Below are positions 4,605-17,643 of a stretch of 20,805 nt of DNA, in pieces; position 1 is the first letter of the stretch; every line of letters starts with the position of its first letter. The position numbers and the translations under genes are program-made. The notes below the pieces were generated by a model, which had not been told where the DNA came from, searched no databases, and saw only the letters and a list, made by a program, of their open reading frames with translations. Source of the stretch: an uncultured Candidatus Saccharibacteria bacterium (lineage in GTDB: Bacteria > Patescibacteriota > Minisyncoccia > Phycocordibacterales > Phycocordibacteraceae); the NCBI GenBank assembly GCA_964359685.1, contig CAYHUW010000006.1, positions 1 to 20,805 of the forward strand, read 5' to 3'.

Positions 4605-4943
4605 ATGAGTGACGGAGGGATAAAAGTCGAGCAATTTCAGATACCGCAAAGCGACCCGCTGACGTTTGCAACTCAAAATCGAGAGGAAATGGAAGCGCTG
4701 ACGGCAGGTCTCTTGGCGCTCGTGCAGGAAAATAACGATGGGCGTACGCATTTTGGAGGAGCAGTAAACCGCATCCGTGGCGACGATATGACGGTCGAAG
4801 CCATCATGATTAAGGGTCTTTTGGCCAAGAAGAACGGGCGATTCCCGGGGTCACTCTTGGGGGGTTTGATGCTTGGGCAAGCTCCTGAGACGAACGTAGT
4901 TCCATTTACCGGACGCAGGAAAAGGAATCCGCGTTCGGAGTAA
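4605..4943 (+). CDS. Hypothetical protein (112 aa), no family recognised
   Basis: An ATG ORF with a promoter-like signal directly upstream and no competing gene on the other strand. No recognisable motif or TM segment. Confidence 0.5.
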   Translation: MSDGGIKVEQFQIPQSDPLTFATQNREEMEALTAGLLALVQENNDGRTHFGGAVNRIRGDDMTVEAIMIKGLLAKKNGRFPGSLLGGLMLGQAPETNVVPFTGRRKRNPRSE

Positions 4944-4955
4944 CGAGGCCGCACA

Positions 4956-5089
4956 TGGTCACAACTCTCGGTTCGCCGCCGCTCACCTCGGTTGCCGACC
5001 CCGACTCACGGTCTCGCGTGACGCTCGACATCGTTCCGTCTCGCACATGTAAACAAAAACAGCCCGCAGGGGCTGTGTTTTGATTCATG
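4956..5089 (-). repeat. Copy 1 of a conserved tRNA-abutting non-coding module
   Basis: Alignable by eye with 10480-10631 and with the reverse complement of 17291-17428. Shared blocks are TGGTCAC..CAACTCTCG, TCGGTTGCCGACCCCGACTC (4988-5007) and ACATCGTTCCGTCT (5028-5041), followed by a terminal hairpin. The strand given is that of the abutting tRNA; the transcribed strand is unknown. Confidence 0.75.
5059..5076. terminator. Bidirectional intrinsic-terminator-like hairpin between ORF 4605-4943 and tRNA-Lys
   Basis: ACAGCCC-gcag-GGGCTGT is a 7-bp stem. It is flanked by an A run on the 5' side and GTTTTG on the 3' side, so a T run follows the stem on both strands. Confidence 0.6.
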
Positions 5090-5162
5090 TGCGCCCACTT
5101 GGACTCGAACCAAGGACCTTCTCCTTAAAAGGGAGCCGCTCTACCGACTGAGCTATGGGCGC
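5090..5162 (-). tRNA. tRNA-Lys (anticodon UUU)
   Basis: The reverse complement folds as a cloverleaf: gcgccca ta gctc agtcggta gagc g gctcc CTTTTAA ggaga aggtc cttgg ttcgagt ccaag tgggcgc a. 73 nt, no encoded CCA. Confidence 0.9.
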
Positions 5163-10479: not shown

Positions 10480-10631
10480 GTTTGTGGTCACGAATCACTA
10501 AGTATTTTACTCAACGTCTCGCAAAATACTAAGTGTTCTCGACCCCGACTCGCGATTTTTCTATGAAGAAAAACATCGCTCCGTCCAGCCCATGTAAACA
10601 AAAACAGCACTCAGGTGCTGTTTTTGAATCA
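10480..10631 (-). repeat. Copy 2 of the conserved tRNA-abutting non-coding module
   Basis: Blocks are GTTTGTGGTCAC (10480-10491), CAACGTCTCG (10512-10521, in the loop of a 13-bp imperfect hairpin spanning 10496-10535), CGACCCCGACTC (10540-10551), a hairpin tttttct-atga-agaaaaa (10556-10573) and ACATCGCTCCGTCC (10573-10586), followed by a terminal hairpin. Confidence 0.75.
10599..10626. terminator. Bidirectional intrinsic-terminator-like hairpin
   Basis: CAAAAACAGCAC-tcag-GTGCTGTTTTTG is a perfect 12-bp stem with A/T runs that supply a T tract on both strands. Confidence 0.6.
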
Positions 10632-10708
10632 TGTGCTCCCGGTACGTGTACGCCGAAAGATATCCCCTCGGTCATATATAAATAAATTTTATATATGACC
10701 CTCGTGTG
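10632..10708. repeat. Insertion-like segment between a 13-nt direct repeat of the tRNA-Arg 3' end, carrying an A/T-rich perfect hairpin
   Basis: TGTGCTCCCGGTA (10632-10644) versus TGTGCTCTCGGTA (10707-10719, the real tRNA 3' end) match at 12/13. Between them lies ggtcatatataa-ataaatt-ttatatatgacc (10670-10700), a 12-bp perfect inverted repeat. Confidence 0.6.
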
Positions 10709-10780
10709 TGCTCTCGGTAGGAATCGAACCTACATTACAAGCTCCGCAAGCTTGCGTCCTATCCATTGAACGACGAGAGC
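10709..10780 (-). tRNA. tRNA-Arg (anticodon GCG)
   Basis: The reverse complement folds as gctctcg tc gttc aatggata ggac g caagc TTGCGGA gcttg taat gtagg ttcgatt cctac cgagagc a. 72 nt, no encoded CCA. Confidence 0.8.
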
Positions 10781-11331: not shown

Positions 11332-12039
11332 ATGGAACATGCGGACCCGAAGATGGAAGAGCTGGTCGCGAAACTGAACGACGAACGGGAACTCGCCGCG
11401 TTCAAAGCCAAGCATGACGGGTATGTTCCGGGGGCGGTTCCGCGATTCTTGGGGGCGCTTCTGGTGTTCTGCGGCAACGCCGTGTACGGAGTCAAACCGT
11501 CGTACCTGAAATTTCGCGCGGTTGAGGTTATCGCGCGCGTTCCGTACCACTCGTGGGAATCGGCGGCGTTCACGTTTCTCACTATGTTTTTCATGAATGA
11601 GAAAAAAGCCCTCGCACTCTCCAACGTGGCGTGGTTCGGCAGACTCGCGAGCGACAACGAAACAATGCACGTGGTCGTCATTTCCCAGCTCGCGAAGAAA
11701 GCCGAAAAATCAAACTGGTTCGTGCACACACTGATCCCGATGCTGTTCGCGTTCTTTTATTTCTGGGCGGCCTACTGGCTCTACCTTTTCAGTCACAAAG
11801 CGGCTCTGGAACTCAACTACCTGTTAGAACAGCACGCGTTTGACCAGTACTCGCAGTTTCTGAAGGAAAATGCTTCGGAGCTCCGGGAAAAGAGAATGGA
11901 GAGCGATTACCTCGCGTGGTACGGGAGAAAAGCGGAGACGGAATATGATTTTTTCCTCTCGGTCAGGAACGACGAAATCATACACCGCAACAATTCAATT
12001 ACTCACATTGAAACGGGGGTGGCTAAGAAAGTCGTTTGA
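11332..12039 (+). CDS. Alternative oxidase / plastid terminal oxidase (AOX/PTOX)-family membrane-bound di-iron carboxylate quinol oxidase homolog
   Basis: 235 aa. It runs collinear with PTOX/AOX landmarks: AVEVIARVPYHSW (cf. LETIARVPYF), ASDNETMHVVV (cf. NE[RM]MHL, ExxH), SNWFVHTLIPMLFAFFYFWAAYWLYLFS...ELNYLLEQHAFDQYSQFLK (cf. LEEEA..HY/TY) and VRNDEIIHRNNS (cf. R.DEA.H, the second ExxH). This gives the E / ExxH / E / ExxH ligand pattern. Confidence 0.8.
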   Translation: MEHADPKMEELVAKLNDERELAAFKAKHDGYVPGAVPRFLGALLVFCGNAVYGVKPSYLKFRAVEVIARVPYHSWESAAFTFLTMFFMNEKKALALSNVAWFGRLASDNETMHVVVISQLAKKAEKSNWFVHTLIPMLFAFFYFWAAYWLYLFSHKAALELNYLLEQHAFDQYSQFLKENASELREKRMESDYLAWYGRKAETEYDFFLSVRNDEIIHRNNSITHIETGVAKKVV

Positions 12040-12373: not shown

Positions 12374-13726
12374 TTACGGAGCAAGGCGCGAGAACCGCCA
12401 CGTACGGCCTGTTTTTTTATAGGAAAGACGTGTATGCAGACGCCCTGAGTGCCCCTGTTCCCAGAACTCAAATTCGCGCGGGGTGAGACGGTACCCGCCC
12501 CAGTGCGGGGGGAGGGGGATTTTCTTCCCGTGGAACTTCCCACGCATTTTCCGCATTTCCTTTTCCAGAGTTTCGGTATCCCGGAGATCCGCACTTTGCA
12601 CAGATGCCCATGCGGAGAGCTGACTCTCTCTCGGGCGGCCGGCGAAATAGGCCGCGGATTCTTTTTGGGGGACGCGCGTCACCTCTCCCTCAACGCGCAC
12701 CTGGCGTCCGACGGAGTTCCAATAAAAAAGAACGGCCGCGTTAGGGTTTTCCGCAAGCTCTTTTGATTTTCTGCTTAGATAATTTGTGAAGAATGTAAAA
12801 CCTTTCGCACCGTGCTTCCTCAGAAACACTACCCGTGCCGACGGATGACCGGAGTGCGTCGCCGTCGCAAGAATCATCGCGTTCGGCTGGGGTTCGTGTG
12901 CGGCTTCCGTATACCATTTTTCAAATTGCCTGAAAGGGTTTCTCAAAACGTTGCCGTCGGGGAGTTCCGGGGTTTCGGCAAGTACTTTGGCGTAGCGGCG
13001 CACCGTTTCCGCAAATCCGAACTTCAGCGCGTCAGCGGTCAGTTCATGCCCGATTGACGCTTCCGAGACGAACGCGGTTATTTTTTCAAGAAGGGGGGGA
13101 AGGTTCTTCAGATTCAGGTCGTGTCCTATGTGTACGCGCAGACCGAGCGCATGCGCGCGTTTTGCGGTGGCGGTTATTTTTTTTAATTCCCCCGCATGTT
13201 TTTCTTTCTTGAATAATTCTGCATACGCGCCCGTATACATCTCTATCCCGTCCGCTCCGAGTTTCTTTGCGTTTTTAAATGCGGCAAAATCCGGGTCAAC
13301 GAAAAGGATGATCCGCGTATTCAGTTTTCGCAATTTTGCGAATACGGGTTTCAAAATGCGCATCTGTTCCGGCGTCAGGTCCCAGCCTTTGTCCGATGTG
13401 AACGCGGTCGCGGAGTCCGGCACCAACGTCGTTTGTTCGGGGCGTATTGAGGAGACAATTTTTAAAAACCGTTCATCAGGATACCCTTCTATATTCAGTT
13501 CTTTGCGGGGACGAAGCGGGCGCATTCGTCGTGCAGTTTCCGTAACGTCGCTCTTCCTCACATGGCGCTCGTCTGATCTCGGATGAAGCGTAATCCCGTG
13601 CGCCCCCGCTTCAATGGCAAGGTCAACGAAATCAAGCACGTTCGGAATATTTGTATGGCGCGCGTTTCTCAAAAGCGCCACTTTGTTCAGGTTGACGCTT
13701 AGCCGCGATTGCACACGCTTTTTCAT
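12374..13726 (-). CDS. Fusion protein: pyridoxine 5'-phosphate synthase (PdxJ, N-terminal) and pyridoxamine/pyridoxine 5'-phosphate oxidase (PdxH, C-terminal)
   Basis: 450 aa from the ATG at 13726. The PdxJ part contains LSVNLNKVALLRNAR, GITLHPRSDERH, TLVPD and IGHDLN..ASIGHEL. The PdxH part contains ATATHSGHPSARVVFLR, FTFFTNYLSRKSKEL, RQVRVEG, YFAGRPRESQLSAWAS, PPHWGGYRL and EFWEQG..RLHTRLSY...RLAP. It is a single uninterrupted frame. Confidence 0.85.
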   Translation of the reverse strand: MKKRVQSRLSVNLNKVALLRNARHTNIPNVLDFVDLAIEAGAHGITLHPRSDERHVRKSDVTETARRMRPLRPRKELNIEGYPDERFLKIVSSIRPEQTTLVPDSATAFTSDKGWDLTPEQMRILKPVFAKLRKLNTRIILFVDPDFAAFKNAKKLGADGIEMYTGAYAELFKKEKHAGELKKITATAKRAHALGLRVHIGHDLNLKNLPPLLEKITAFVSEASIGHELTADALKFGFAETVRRYAKVLAETPELPDGNVLRNPFRQFEKWYTEAAHEPQPNAMILATATHSGHPSARVVFLRKHGAKGFTFFTNYLSRKSKELAENPNAAVLFYWNSVGRQVRVEGEVTRVPQKESAAYFAGRPRESQLSAWASVQSADLRDTETLEKEMRKMRGKFHGKKIPLPPHWGGYRLTPREFEFWEQGHSGRLHTRLSYKKTGRTWRFSRLAP

Positions 13727-13728
13727 TG

Positions 13729-13815
13729 CGGAGGAGGTGAGATTCGAACTCACGGTCCAGTTTCCCGGACGCCGCATTTCAAGTGCGGTGCGTTAGACCA
13801 CTCTGCCACTCCTCC
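13729..13815 (-). tRNA. tRNA-Ser (anticodon UGA), class II with a long variable arm
   Basis: The reverse complement folds as ggaggag tg gca gagtggtctaa cgc a ccgca CTTGAAA tgcgg, then a variable arm cgtccgggaaactggacc, then gtgag ttcgaat ctcac ctcctcc g. 87 nt, no CCA. Confidence 0.9.
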
Positions 13816-17218: not shown

Positions 17219-17290
17219 GGCCCCGTAGTTTAATGGATAAAACCGGAGACTTCTAAGCTCTTAATCGAGGTTCGATTCCTCGCGGGGCCA
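17219..17290 (+). tRNA. tRNA-Arg (anticodon UCU)
   Basis: Folds as ggccccg ta gttt aatggata aaac c ggaga CTTCTAA gctct taat cgagg ttcgatt cctcg cggggcc a. 72 nt, with one A-G mismatch at the bottom of the anticodon stem and no CCA. Confidence 0.8.
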
Positions 17291-17428
17291 CAAGGTAAAA
17301 AAAGCAAAACCACTTTGCTTTTTTGTCCGCTTGTGGCAGACGGAGGCATGTTTTGTGAGTGCACAAAACAGCCGAGTCGGGGCCGGCGACCGAGCTCTGC
17401 GGGCAGAGCGAGAGTTGTAGGCCACAAA
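17291..17428 (+). repeat. Copy 3 of the conserved tRNA-abutting non-coding module (inverted relative to copies 1 and 2)
   Basis: Contains a hairpin plus T run (17298-17324), AGACGGAGGCATGT (17338-17351), a hairpin ttttgtg-agtg-cacaaaa (17351-17368), GAGTCGGGGCCGGCGACCGA (17374-17393), a hairpin gctctgc..gcagagc (17394-17409) and CGAGAGTTGTAGGCCACAAA (17409-17428). Confidence 0.75.
17298..17324 (+). terminator. Intrinsic terminator directly after tRNA-Arg(UCU)
   Basis: AAAAAAGCAAA-accac-TTTGCTTTTTT is an 11-bp stem ending in a T run. Confidence 0.6.
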
Positions 17429-17445
17429 TTGTATTTGGTTCTGAG

Positions 17446-17518
17446 TGGGCGCTGAGGGACTTGAACCCCCGACCTTCTCTGTGTAAAAGAGTTGCTCTAC
17501 CAACTGAGCTAAGCGCCC
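17446..17518 (-). tRNA. tRNA-Val (anticodon UAC)
   Basis: The reverse complement folds as gggcgct ta gctc agttggta gagc a actct TTTACAC agaga aggtc ggggg ttcaagt ccctc agcgccc a. 73 nt, no CCA. Confidence 0.9.
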
Positions 17519-17621
17519 GCAACATTACAATTTCCCTTGCTCTACTACGGCGAGCGAGGAGCGGCGCGAAAATTTGTTTTCATGCCGTCGGAGCGACGCC
17601 GGAGCAAGCCGCCCTGCGGCT

Positions 17622-17643
17622 TACCAACTGAGCTAAGCGCCCG
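17622..17643 (-). pseudogene. Orphan duplicate of the first ~21 nt of tRNA-Val (acceptor 5' strand plus D arm), with no remainder of a tRNA
   Basis: The 22 nt TACCAACTGAGCTAAGCGCCCG are identical at 17498-17519 and 17622-17643. Sequence beyond the copy gives no anticodon or T arm. Confidence 0.7.

Follow-up and report, generated by a model that had tools for sequence, protein, structure and literature searches.

The 134-base stretch represents one member of a multi-copy, strongly folded non-coding repeat family, and copies of this repeat lie at the 3΄ ends of tRNA genes. Using a covariance model (R1), we identified 169 copies (70 + 99) in 125 other loci plus the window, by which we mean the whole 20,805-nucleotide stretch analyzed here; almost all of the element-bearing loci are labelled Patescibacteria (CPR bacteria). 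In our preferred reading, to which we give about an even chance, the element is a non-autonomous, structured repeat of Patescibacteria that targets tRNA 3΄ ends and is probably transcribed as a tRNA trailer.

The original prediction described three copies in the window with shared ordered blocks. The core pattern CCCCGACTC-N14-34-ACAT-NNN-TCCGTC gave three exact matches in the window, compared with 0.00 expected (100 shuffles), and all three copies were supported by the covariance model (E-values below). The quoted blocks TGGTCAC, CGRCCCCGACTC and ACATnnnTCCGTC were all present, as was the 18/20 match between copies 1 and 3. The copies and their parts are as follows:

4957–5089, + strand: element copy 1 (alignment of the three copies; covariance model E-value 7e-15)
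5090–5162, – strand: tRNA-Lys(UUU) (ARAGORN; Rfam tRNA match 71.6 bits), with discriminator A73 at 5090; CCA is not encoded, and CA lies directly after the gene
5042–5093, – strand: long hairpin Pc/H0 of copy 1 (fold MFE –61.9 kcal/mol, z –3.7); its 5΄ strand begins at tRNA positions 70–73 plus CAUG, its inner stem 5059–5076 with U-run is the bidirectional intrinsic terminator of tRNA-Lys (terminator scan), and its 3΄ strand 5042–5049 (CAUGUGCG) is a tRNA-complementary segment that pairs 3/3 with tRNA 70–72
5003–5040, – strand: hairpin S1 of copy 1 (covariance model alignment, pair counts, fold), with a GAC/GUC base, a GGA/GA internal loop, a covarying 3-bp helix, an AU bulge and a variable upper stem with tandem G·A
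5001–5002 and 4957–5000, – strand: GG linker and hairpin S2 of copy 1 (covariance model alignment, pair counts, fold); S2 is closed at its base by GGUC/GACC, and its terminal loop is akin to the family consensus GAGCGACGGCGA
4950–4956, – strand: far-end flank AUGUGCG of copy 1 (longest-common-substring analysis, sequence), a direct repeat of 5042–5048, the two flanking the S1–S2 core
10486–10633, + strand: element copy 2 (three-copy alignment; E-value 1e-12, 62.6 bits)
10709–10780, – strand: tRNA-Arg(GCG) (ARAGORN, Rfam)
10634–10707, – strand: secondary insertion at copy 2 (sequence, tRNA-sense listing, alignment to locus L046), which includes a displaced duplicate of the tRNA-Arg 3΄ end at 10634–10646 (reverse complement GUACCGGGAGCA) and 61 inserted nt that contain a perfect, AT-rich hairpin (about 10661–10691)
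10587–10637, – strand: long hairpin Pc/H0 of copy 2 (fold, sequence), with a terminator-like inner stem 10600–10625 and a base that pairs with the displaced tRNA-Arg fragment
10483–10585, – strand: core of copy 2 (covariance model match 62.6 bits; fold), comprising S1 10547–10585, linker 10545–10546, S2 10486–10544 (long type with ACUAAG...CUUAGU) and far-end ACA 10483–10485
17291–17423, – strand: element copy 3 (three-copy alignment; E-value 3e-11, 56.9 bits)
17219–17290, + strand: tRNA-Arg(UCU) (ARAGORN, Rfam)
17287–17337, + strand: long hairpin Pc/H0 of copy 3 (fold MFE –69.4 kcal/mol, z –6.5), in which GCCACAAG (tRNA 70–73 plus CAAG) is paired with CUUGUGGC
17339–17430, + strand: core of copy 3 (covariance model match 56.9 bits; fold), comprising S1 17339–17378, GG 17379–17380, S2 17381–17423 with a GGCC/GGCC base, and far-end ACAAAUU 17424–17430, which repeats A73-CAA of its tRNA

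A convergent tRNA-Val begins 14 nt beyond the far end of copy 3. All three copies had been described as butted against a tRNA 3΄ end. The tie of the module to tRNA 3΄ ends stands, but copy 2 does not adjoin its tRNA: it is separated from tRNA-Arg(GCG) by about 61 nt (10647–10707) together with the duplicated tRNA-Arg fragment.

Read 5΄ to 3΄ on the tRNA strand, the element consists of the long, nearly perfect hairpin H0, which begins at tRNA positions 70–73 and includes the terminator of the tRNA, the hairpins S1 and S2, and a short repeat of the discriminator base plus CA. RNAalifold applied to a plain MAFFT alignment gave a poor consensus with a misplaced gap; the model structure was specified by hand on a colinear subset, and the sequences were then re-aligned with the model. 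In the resulting family alignment, 88.2% of cells were paired, compared with 64.3% after shuffling and 35–48% when the partners were slid, and compensatory double changes were observed in 35 of the 37 pairs. Throughout the family, the base of S1 is an invariant GAC/GUC and its internal loop is GGA/GA; the base of S2 is GGUC/GACC. The upper stem of S1 occurs at a fixed position with unrelated sequence and covaries across the family; this is the hairpin from which conservation of structure rather than of stem sequence had been proposed, and the family-wide covariation supports that proposal. The CCCCGAC core had been placed in the loop of a short stem, which the covariation contradicts: its first CC belongs to the base helix of S2, the next CC to the linker and GAC to the base helix of S1. 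A further proposed block, CNCA-N5-ACAAAAA, is conserved within the window but not across the family. In the sub-type that we call the T-loop type (see below), a closing helix P1 forms between the 5΄ flank and the region after S1; in the type found in the window, P1 shrinks to UGU/ACA, and the same segment pairs instead with the tRNA end and trailer. We dropped a possible kissing contact of the S1 loop (AGYA) with the H0 loop (CUGC/CUAC), which was compatible with the data but uninformative.

The original prediction read the element towards the tRNA, an orientation that is probably the antisense one. On that strand, the non-Watson-Crick cells comprised 46 G·U, 79 A·C, 118 C·U and 21 G·A, and only on the tRNA-sense strand do the recurrent A·C and C·U mismatches turn into G·U and tandem G·A. 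The minimum free energy was also lower on the tRNA-sense strand in 66 of 67 copies (mean difference –8.6 kcal/mol; Wilcoxon test, P about 1e-12); for window copies 1, 2 and 3, the values were –61.9, –60.5 and –69.4 kcal/mol, compared with –54.1, –46.9 and –56.0 kcal/mol on the opposite strand. On the basis of both the mismatch conversion and the greater stability, we assigned the fold to the tRNA-sense strand. G·U pairs are rare overall in the helices of the element, so that the same fold could also be adopted by single-stranded DNA.

We found the core pattern in 45 loci from genomes and in more than 120 stretches from metagenomes. The original prediction had proposed a covariance model search for further copies and a test of covarying pairs; the census and pair counts given above show both further copies and covariation. 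Scanning the window and the eight best loci against Rfam 15 (E ≤ 1, both strands) yielded only tRNAs and sub-threshold noise, and S1/S2 remained unmatched, in agreement with the earlier statement that no described RNA family was recognizable; the families in scope included hammerhead, twister, pistol, hatchet, HDV-like, IS605-orfB, HEARO, ROOL/GOLLD and riboswitches. We found no description of the element in the literature on structured RNA, tRNA, ribozymes, tRNA-like RNAs and MITEs in CPR/Patescibacteria, and the repeat family is previously uncatalogued. The element is not phage-borne: viral contigs gave one pattern match that was unconfirmed by the model and one weak match (E 0.008), and are essentially devoid of it. 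Clustering of 157 ORFs near the elements produced only synteny-related groups of at most five members and no consistent protein neighbor, and no integrase, transposase or reverse transcriptase was linked to the element among them.

We then tabulated the positions of all copies relative to tRNA genes, as had been suggested. On the folded strand, 91 of the 169 copies lie directly 3΄ of a tRNA, involving 32 isoacceptors, compared with only 3 copies in the other orientation. The tRNA-to-element distances peak at 33, about 51 and 68–74 nt. Elements occur within tRNA clusters, where the next same-strand tRNA is as near as 15–38 nt, and at least 10 of the first 70 copies have same-strand tRNAs on both sides. 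About half of the tRNAs in the examined loci carry the element, and no more. The order tRNA-Lys(ctt), element, tRNA-Leu(tag) is common to the distant genomes L001, L005, L012 and L016.

The element also carries sequences matched to its host tRNA. The 3΄ foot of H0 is complementary to tRNA positions 70–73 plus CA and covaries with tRNA identity. When we compared the 3 nt preceding S1 with tRNA positions 70–72, 2.14 of 3 were paired overall, compared with 1.52 ± 0.07 with shuffled partners, and nearly all copies of the 3΄-end type showed 3/3 pairing. The far-end base tracks the tRNA discriminator, for example GCA at tRNA-Trp. The window copies repeat only N73-CA plus 0–5 nt, and of the candidate tRNA-like parts their folds have only S2 followed by N73-CA.

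The T-loop sub-type was observed in relatives only, the window copies being without the full tRNA mimic. Its tail is a 19–22-nt repeat of tRNA positions 56–73 plus CA; 15 clear repeats begin exactly at C56 and run to N73 plus CA, with matches at 18–22 of 23 nt. The span between the repeats is only about 150–250 nt and is free of ORFs. The 5΄ strands of both the acceptor stem and the T-stem are also duplicated in this sub-type, and the whole unit would therefore fold as a tRNA-like cloverleaf with S1/S2 within the ‘T-loop’. Unconstrained folds of many T-loop-type copies showed an acceptor-like stem of 7–13 bp, H0, and a T-stem-like helix bearing S1 and S2, with N73-CA usually base-paired and CCA rarely encoded.

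Copies are gained, lost, nested and repeated in tandem. Relatives with 85%, 78% and 70% HolA identity have synteny and the same tRNA-Lys/tRNA-Arg genes, but no element in 54 kb. Loci L048 and L046 keep the same terminator plus element remnants; L048 was considered as a clean empty site and rejected, since 7 nt of the S2 tail persist in L046, a sign of internal deletions. Deletions alone could explain why relatives lack the element. In L028, a T-loop-type copy is inserted in a tRNA-Lys that already bears a 3΄-end-type copy, and a further copy with 88% similarity lies at a non-tRNA site. Tandem arrays occur in L012 and L056, and in 14 of 59 cases the nearest neighbor of a copy comes from its own locus, compared with 0.66 expected. 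L007 (at tRNA-Lys) and L033 (at tRNA-Arg) have cores that are 82% alike, the same tRNA is occupied by different sub-types in different genomes, and decayed and truncated copies are common among the covariance model matches. The flanking duplications vary in length: most copies have 3 nt (N73-CA), a few have 7–10 nt and the T-loop type has about 20 nt. No uniform target-site duplication was found in 86 copies, a 7–10-nt repeat of the hairpin foot being present in about 7 of them; no clean empty site, no circular junction and no mobilizing enzyme were identified among the loci examined.

We also analyzed transcription signals. The stem of copy 1 at 5059–5076 is followed by TTTTGTTTAC on the tRNA strand and by GTTTTGATTC on the opposite strand. 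The simple terminator scan did not call copies 2 and 3; the same design of A-run, stem and T-run is present in their folds. Only the H0 part has the form of an intrinsic terminator, and S1/S2 do not. A canonical terminator, with stem and U-run, separates the tRNA from the S1/S2 core in the window copies and in the class at about 72 nt; read-through would therefore be needed for the tRNA promoter to drive transcription of the core. In the window copies, the promoter scan detected a promoter-like site only for tRNA-Lys and none for the S1/S2 core. No reading frame is conserved among the copies, as had been stated in arguing that the module is non-coding; a peptide from the ATG frame of copy 1 or from the 60-aa ORF 4906–5088 was likewise rejected, neither being conserved in the other copies.

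According to our preferred reading, a mobile or duplicative, non-autonomous element would target tRNA 3΄ ends and may supply or extend the terminator of the tRNA. Read-through from the tRNA promoter would transcribe it within the 3΄ trailer, and, given the resemblance of its ends to a tRNA end, it may be released by tRNA- or dsRNA-processing enzymes. A putative trans-acting factor (a recombinase, or else an enzyme that binds or processes RNA) might recognize the structure of the conserved S1/S2 core. A bolder reading, which we regard as possible but unlikely, is that the family represents a new class of base-pairing-guided, tRNA-mimicking genetic element, or a tRNA-like regulatory RNA that is specific to CPR bacteria and made from most tRNA operons. 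A guided element of this kind would consist of a small RNA or of single-stranded DNA, and its conserved S1/S2 core, being catalytic or recruiting a host tRNA enzyme, would drive insertion at or excision from tRNA 3΄ ends. The short segment covarying with tRNA 70–73 would pick the target, and the T-loop type would use the copied acceptor/T-stem strands.

Several other explanations were weighed against these observations. The element might act only as single-stranded DNA, its tRNA-sense fold being recognized by a trans-acting HUH or tyrosine recombinase and RNA having no role; IS200/IS605-derived PATEs, integron attC sites and the CTX phage attP provide models for this explanation, which we consider improbable. 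It would account for the almost purely Watson-Crick helices and long perfect hairpins (DNA also tolerates G·T and sheared G·A), the strict strand and orientation relative to the target, the segment complementary to the target (cf. IS608 guide sequences), the evident mobile behavior and the terminator upstream of the core. However, PATEs have similar subterminal hairpins at both ends, a conserved 4–5-nt target, no duplication and TnpA in the genome; here, the ‘end’ hairpins H0 and S2 are unlike, no target tetranucleotide is conserved beyond N73-CA, duplications are present, those of about 20 nt in the T-loop type not being made by IS200/IS605 elements, and no transposase or integrase recurs in the 157 neighboring ORFs. 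Integron attC sites are defined by R΄΄-L΄΄...L΄-R΄ boxes with GTTRRRY, cassette arrays and a nearby IntI, whereas the blocks of the element are GGUC/GACC, GAC/GUC and GGA/GA, GTTRRRY is absent, and there is no cassette ORF or integrase. The position inside tRNA clusters, so close to the next same-strand tRNA, moreover favors co-transcription. Close relatives without the element at the same tRNAs, the occupation of only about half of the tRNAs, the different sub-types borne by the same tRNA and the many decayed copies all speak against a domesticated cis-acting RNA of the tRNA transcription unit, that is, a 3΄-end processing/termination module or a self-cleaving ribozyme whose mobility is secondary; moreover, no known Rfam ribozyme class was matched. 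This explanation, which we think quite unlikely, nevertheless draws on the covarying pairing with tRNA 70–73 plus CA, since a ribozyme candidate would pair with the tRNA 3΄ end, on the invariant unpaired nucleotides in a three-helix core, as in small ribozymes, and on the conservation at the same tRNAs in the distant genomes named above; being tRNA-like, the RNA is also a plausible predicted substrate of RNase P or RNase Z.

The leading option of the original prediction, an independent or 3΄-UTR-derived small RNA that would run towards the tRNA and stop at the bidirectional terminator shared with it, found no support and is very unlikely. The tRNA-adjoining hairpin does score as a terminator on that strand too, and in copies 1 and 2 an ORF stops just upstream on the same strand, but the fold is weaker there in all but one of the copies compared, it shows conserved A·C and tandem C·U mismatches where the opposite strand has G·U and G·A, many copies lie between opposite-strand tRNAs where a promoter has no room, and the scan revealed no promoter-like site on that strand. 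It is still harder to regard the copies as inert scars (attL/attR remnants) of integrase-mediated genomic islands or prophages using tRNA genes, which we judge highly improbable: in scars, a core of about 100 nt would not be maintained through compensatory changes in many genomes and at 32 tRNA species, the unit between repeats is short and ORF-free, and viral contigs are essentially without the element. What the scars would explain is the starting point of the direct repeats of tRNA 3΄ segments, either the T-loop or the 3΄ end; these are reportedly the classical sub-locations of tRNA integration sites.

Patescibacteria account for a large share of bacterial diversity and have tiny genomes, and, to our knowledge, descriptions of non-coding RNAs or mobile elements from them are few. 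A structured element of about 150 nt may occupy a large fraction of the tRNA genes in many of their lineages, pairing with or copying the tRNA 3΄ half and turning over fast between close relatives. If it is mobile, tRNA genes would be targeted via sequence complementarity without an element-encoded enzyme; if it is an expressed RNA, it would be an abundant, uncharacterized RNA class tied to tRNA maturation in hosts with reduced RNA-processing machinery. The element accounts for recurrent ‘extra’ sequence, tRNA fragments and tandem repeats beside tRNA genes in CPR assemblies, and the covariance model now provided can be used to annotate tRNA-adjoining regions in such assemblies.

Among known systems, tRNA-targeting integrative elements and genomic islands also lie at tRNA 3΄ ends and leave an intact tRNA, which here gains a terminator, and their tRNA 3΄ repeats likewise start from C56 or the discriminator and end just past the gene. 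Unlike them, the element is only about 150–250 nt long without integrase or other ORF, and has a covarying single-strand fold, tRNA-complementary segments and dozens of tRNA hosts. The suggestion of an att-like site family therefore holds for the direct repeats of tRNA 3΄ segments, but not for the integrase and cargo. The proposal of a REP/MITE-like element with a tRNA-end preference fared similarly. As with REP/BIME, REPIN and MITEs (Correia, RUP, ERIC), the copies are multiple, intergenic and hairpin-forming, often double as terminator, and are gained, lost (presence/absence polymorphism), tandemly repeated, nested and decayed; in contrast, the usual terminal inverted repeats are absent from the copies, as is a fixed-length duplication, and the element has a multi-helix core with invariant internal-loop nucleotides, a strict tRNA-3΄-end association and orientation, and apparent mimicry of tRNA.

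Like tRNA 3΄ external-transcribed-spacer RNAs (3΄ETS-leuZ), the element occupies the trailer position on the strand of the tRNA, and the acceptor-like and T-arm-like stems copied from tRNA in the T-loop sub-type would resemble those of tRNA-like RNAs (mascRNA, the tRNA-like domain of tmRNA, YrlA). It differs from both groups in being repeated behind many tRNAs, in carrying its core in the ‘T-loop’, in lacking a D or anticodon arm and in being known from sequence. Group IIC introns insert after terminator hairpins, and IS200/IS605 elements use guide–target pairing. Although the element has no associated transposase, reverse transcriptase or recombinase and no group II domains, leaves the Rfam models of IS200/IS605, group II and IS110 kinds unmatched and has flanking duplications of variable length, it shares with these guide-dependent elements, including the IS110 bridge RNA, an internal segment complementary to the insertion site, a position at the foot of a terminator hairpin and a single-strand fold.

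The window comes from a bacterial chromosome, on a Kaiserbacteria-like contig, and carries housekeeping genes (PolA, HolA-like, SpoU, Mur ligase, RuvA, PdxJ/H, PilM/N, UppS, L19) and five tRNAs. The original prediction of a single module in three copies was borne out: approximately 140 nt could be aligned along its ordered blocks, and the composite pattern CCCCGACTC-N14-34-ACAT-NNN-TCCGTC matched exactly three times in the window, compared with no matches in 100 shuffles. No reading frame was conserved among the copies, in agreement with the view that the element is non-coding. The copies, all with the simpler, 3΄-end type of junction to the tRNA, are as follows, each described on the tRNA-sense strand:

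4957-5089: copy 1, at tRNA-Lys
10486-10633: copy 2, at tRNA-Arg-GCG
17291-17423: copy 3, at tRNA-Arg-UCU

The trailer and H0, the long hairpin preceding the core, are almost identical in copies 1 and 2, and copies 1 and 3 have the genome-specific start of hairpin S2, ACAACUCUCG, in common. The copies had been described as always butted against a tRNA 3΄ end, which does not hold for copy 2: between it and tRNA-Arg-GCG lie a 13-nt duplicate of the tRNA 3΄ end and about 61 nt of further sequence. This extra insert (10634-10707) contains an AT-rich perfect hairpin (GGGUCAUAUAUAAAAUUUAUUUAUAUAUGACC) and is flanked by the duplicated tRNA 3΄ end, which suggests that a different small insertion used the same tRNA end.

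An exact-pattern scan of species-representative genomes found 45 loci, nearly all labeled as Patescibacteria (Paceibacteria, Kaiser-, Moran-, Taylor-, Nomura- and Adlerbacteria, and some 'Saccharibacteria'), and a metagenome scan with the same pattern found at least 120 stretches. No credible match was found in the viral collection. Using a covariance model (R1) built from 17 colinear copies with a structure specified by hand, we detected 70 copies in the window and the 45 genome loci together; the metagenome matches listed gave another 99, spread over 80 loci. Two to six copies were present in many 8-kb loci, some of them arranged in tandem, truncated or of a 'mini' form. A scan of both strands of the window and the best loci against Rfam 15 gave no match, consistent with the claim that this is not a described RNA family, and full-text literature searches found no description of it. 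Typical elements beside tRNAs also occur on short contigs binned by record title as Bacteroidetes, Nitrospira or Bdellovibrionales (L014, L015 and L032), and several syntenic contigs carry the label Saccharibacteria. These labels are probably mis-binned or coarse, and given this, the element could serve as a marker of Paceibacteria.

The consensus core consists of the following parts:

S2: hairpin with a GGUC/GACC base and a covarying stem, in a short form or a long form with ACUAAG...CUUAGU
linker between S2 and S1: two nucleotides
S1: GAC/GUC base, conserved internal loop, 3-bp covarying helix, 2-nt bulge and variable upper stem

In the R1 alignment, which was fitted to the model itself, standard pairs occupied 88.2% of cells, compared with 64.3% for shuffled controls and 35-48% with partners slid, a large margin, and 35 of the 37 pairs changed on both sides. 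This covariation supports the earlier suggestion that structure is conserved over sequence, and we regard the family and its fold as real with near certainty. The hairpin of unrelated sequence noted at a fixed place is also real, being the variable upper stem of S1; the proposal that CCCCGAC is a loop motif is contradicted by the consensus structure.

A single-strand fold is conserved on the tRNA-sense strand, opposite to the orientation originally predicted, which ran towards the tRNA. On the latter strand, the recurrent non-canonical cells were mainly A·C (79) and C·U/U·C (118), versus G·U (46) and G·A (21); on the tRNA-sense strand, the A·C and C·U/U·C cells correspond to G·U wobbles and to sheared G·A pairs in tandem, and the helix of S2 is uninterrupted (GGUCGCGGA.../...UCUGUGACC). 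In 66 of 67 copies, it was on the tRNA-sense strand that the core had the lower minimum free energy (MFE) (mean difference -8.6 kcal/mol; Wilcoxon test, P ~ 1e-12). Window copies 1, 2 and 3 adopted a common three-hairpin layout on this strand, with MFE values of -61.9, -60.5 and -69.4 kcal/mol, compared with -54.1, -46.9 and -56.0 kcal/mol on the other. Because G+U-rich strands fold better in general, this evidence is strong but not absolute, and the folded strand is very likely the tRNA-sense one.

The element is anchored at tRNA 3΄ ends. Among the 169 copies listed, 91 directly followed a tRNA on the folded strand, at distances clustering at ~33, ~51 and 68-74 nt; three copies had the opposite arrangement, 16 lay at contig ends, and most of the remainder were in tandem or behind tRNAs or fragments missed by ARAGORN. 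At least 32 isoacceptors carried the element among the copies listed, and at least 10 of the first 70 copies lay between same-strand tRNAs, as in Tyr-element-Thr (L035, next tRNA 15 nt away), Arg-element-Gly (L038) and Lys(ctt)-element(s)-Leu(tag), the last in four genomes. The unit on the tRNA strand reads tRNA(N73)-CA, an optional terminator-like hairpin, H0 (loop often CUGC), a tRNA-complementary segment, S1, GG, S2 and a tail, where N73 is the discriminator base. The tRNA 3΄ half is both complemented and copied: the segment between H0 and S1 is complementary to the trailer and tRNA positions 70-73, and the tail repeats N73-CA, tracking the discriminator (GCA behind tRNA-Trp). In essentially all 3΄-end-type copies, the last 3 nt ahead of S1 are paired with positions 70-72 of the tRNA and vary with it (GCGCA/UGCG, GAGCA/UGCU, GGCCA/UGGC, GGUCA/UGAC, GCGGA/UCCG, CCCG/CGGG), with an overall score of 2.14 of 3, compared with 1.52 ± 0.07 for shuffled partners.

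CCA is not encoded in the tRNA genes of the window, and a CA usually comes directly after N73, even without an element. At 13725-13815, the PdxJ-PdxH fusion gene begins 3 nt past tRNA-Ser (...CCG-CA-AUG), and the listed ORF start inside this tRNA is spurious. From the 5΄ part of tRNA-Val, 22 nt are exactly duplicated (17622-17643 = 17498-17519) ~100 nt upstream of the intact gene; the duplicate is followed within 17519-17643 by a GC-rich insert and a diverged 'GUAGAGCAA' continuation. The region resembles either a pseudo-tRNA-Val that has been interrupted or the product of another type of tRNA-linked insertion.

A second, T-loop junction type was observed in relatives only. Behind S2 (...GUGAC), at least 15 copies carry a direct repeat of the tRNA from C56 to N73 plus CA, identical to the tRNA at 18-22 of 23 nt. 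The T-stem 5΄ strand plus UUCGAAA lies upstream of S1, a copy of the acceptor 5΄ strand often precedes H0, and several copies have their own terminator behind them. In unconstrained folds, an acceptor-like stem (7-13 bp) and H0 were accompanied by a T-stem-like helix with S1 and S2 in its 'loop'; the predicted fold is a tRNA-like cloverleaf that lacks a D arm and is made of the neighboring tRNA's own stems.

Elements are gained, lost and duplicated. Three relatives with HolA 85%, 78% and 70% identical are syntenic with the window and retain orthologs of tRNA-Lys(UUU) and tRNA-Arg(GCG), and the R1 search of their 54 kb found no element. Downstream of tRNA-Lys, L046:10690-10756 and L048:10687-10798 retain a near-identical terminator hairpin and tRNA-complementary foot without S1/S2; since L046 keeps 7 nt of the S2 tail (GUUGUGA), these sites are apparent internal-deletion derivatives. 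L049 has a different terminator behind tRNA-Lys, abutting the ORF stop. The 112-aa ORF upstream of copy 1 (4605-4943) is present in the window and in L049, the 85% relative, and missing in the 78% and 70% relatives, where tRNA-Lys almost directly follows HolA. Separately, ORF 11332-12039, conserved in L046, matches the Pfam alternative-oxidase (AOX) family (E 6e-11), which is unexpected in a Patescibacteria genome.

In the composite array L028:87-407 (tRNA-Lys, T-loop-type copy, displaced tRNA 3΄ end, 3΄-end-type copy), a T-loop-type copy was inserted into a tRNA-Lys already bearing a 3΄-end-type copy, displacing the tRNA 3΄ fragment; the older copy has a pair of S2-like hairpins, of which one has a GCCC/GGGC base. 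An 88%-similar composite copy lies 3 kb away (L028:3420-3522) at a non-tRNA site behind an unrelated terminator, the similarity running from the hairpin foot to GUGACCAC(A/U)A. L012 has three tandem units and one truncated older unit, and L056:4027-4728 is an array of 5.2 perfectly identical units (136 nt) that follows an atypical long-arm tRNA missed by ARAGORN; L056:7114-7422 is a separate 142-nt repeat (x2.2) containing tRNA-like sequence. In 14 of 59 cases, a copy and its nearest neighbor shared a locus, compared with 0.66 expected. Cores from separate genomes, lying behind different tRNAs, can be 82% alike, the same tRNA was occupied by different sub-types in different genomes, and no protein family recurred beside the elements. 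Mobility or turnover is likely.

Our preferred explanation, in which our confidence is evenly balanced, is a non-autonomous element that would spread among tRNA 3΄ ends, leaving the tRNA intact and terminated. It would be transcribed as a trailer by terminator read-through and trimmed by RNase III, RNase P or RNase Z-type enzymes, and its invariant S1/S2 core may be a handle for a putative factor. Trailer transcription is suggested because of the long perfect hairpin and the tRNA-like ends; we consider RNA-level expression slightly favored and processing by tRNA enzymes doubtful. The main weaknesses of this composite explanation are the terminator between the tRNA and the core, and the heterogeneous flanking repeats.

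The folding predictions behind the strand preference do not separate an RNA fold from a single-stranded DNA fold, and a DNA-only fold recognized by a recombinase is an unlikely alternative; IS200/IS605 and attC signatures were not found in the element. A domesticated cis-acting processing RNA or ribozyme would suit the pairing with the tRNA but not the lack of the element at the same tRNAs in close relatives, and appears somewhat less likely again. The antisense small RNA originally proposed would be read from the strand that folds less well; it is very improbable. Inert att scars would account for the direct repeats of the tRNA 3΄ segment but not for the two-sided changes in the stems, and we give them the least credence.

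The repeat geometry resembles that of tRNA-targeting integrative elements, but integrase and cargo are absent. The earlier suggestion of a REP/MITE-like element with a preference for tRNA ends stands as to copy dynamics, with gain, loss and duplication, but not as to terminal inverted repeats or a fixed duplication, which the element lacks. Complementarity to the target recalls guide-dependent elements, and the mimicry of tRNA, known here from sequence and predicted fold, recalls tRNA-like RNAs; the element has a real, though low, chance of being a categorically new guided or tRNA-mimicking one. As the element departs from each known family in its defining features, we conservatively file it as a tRNA-associated non-coding repeat.
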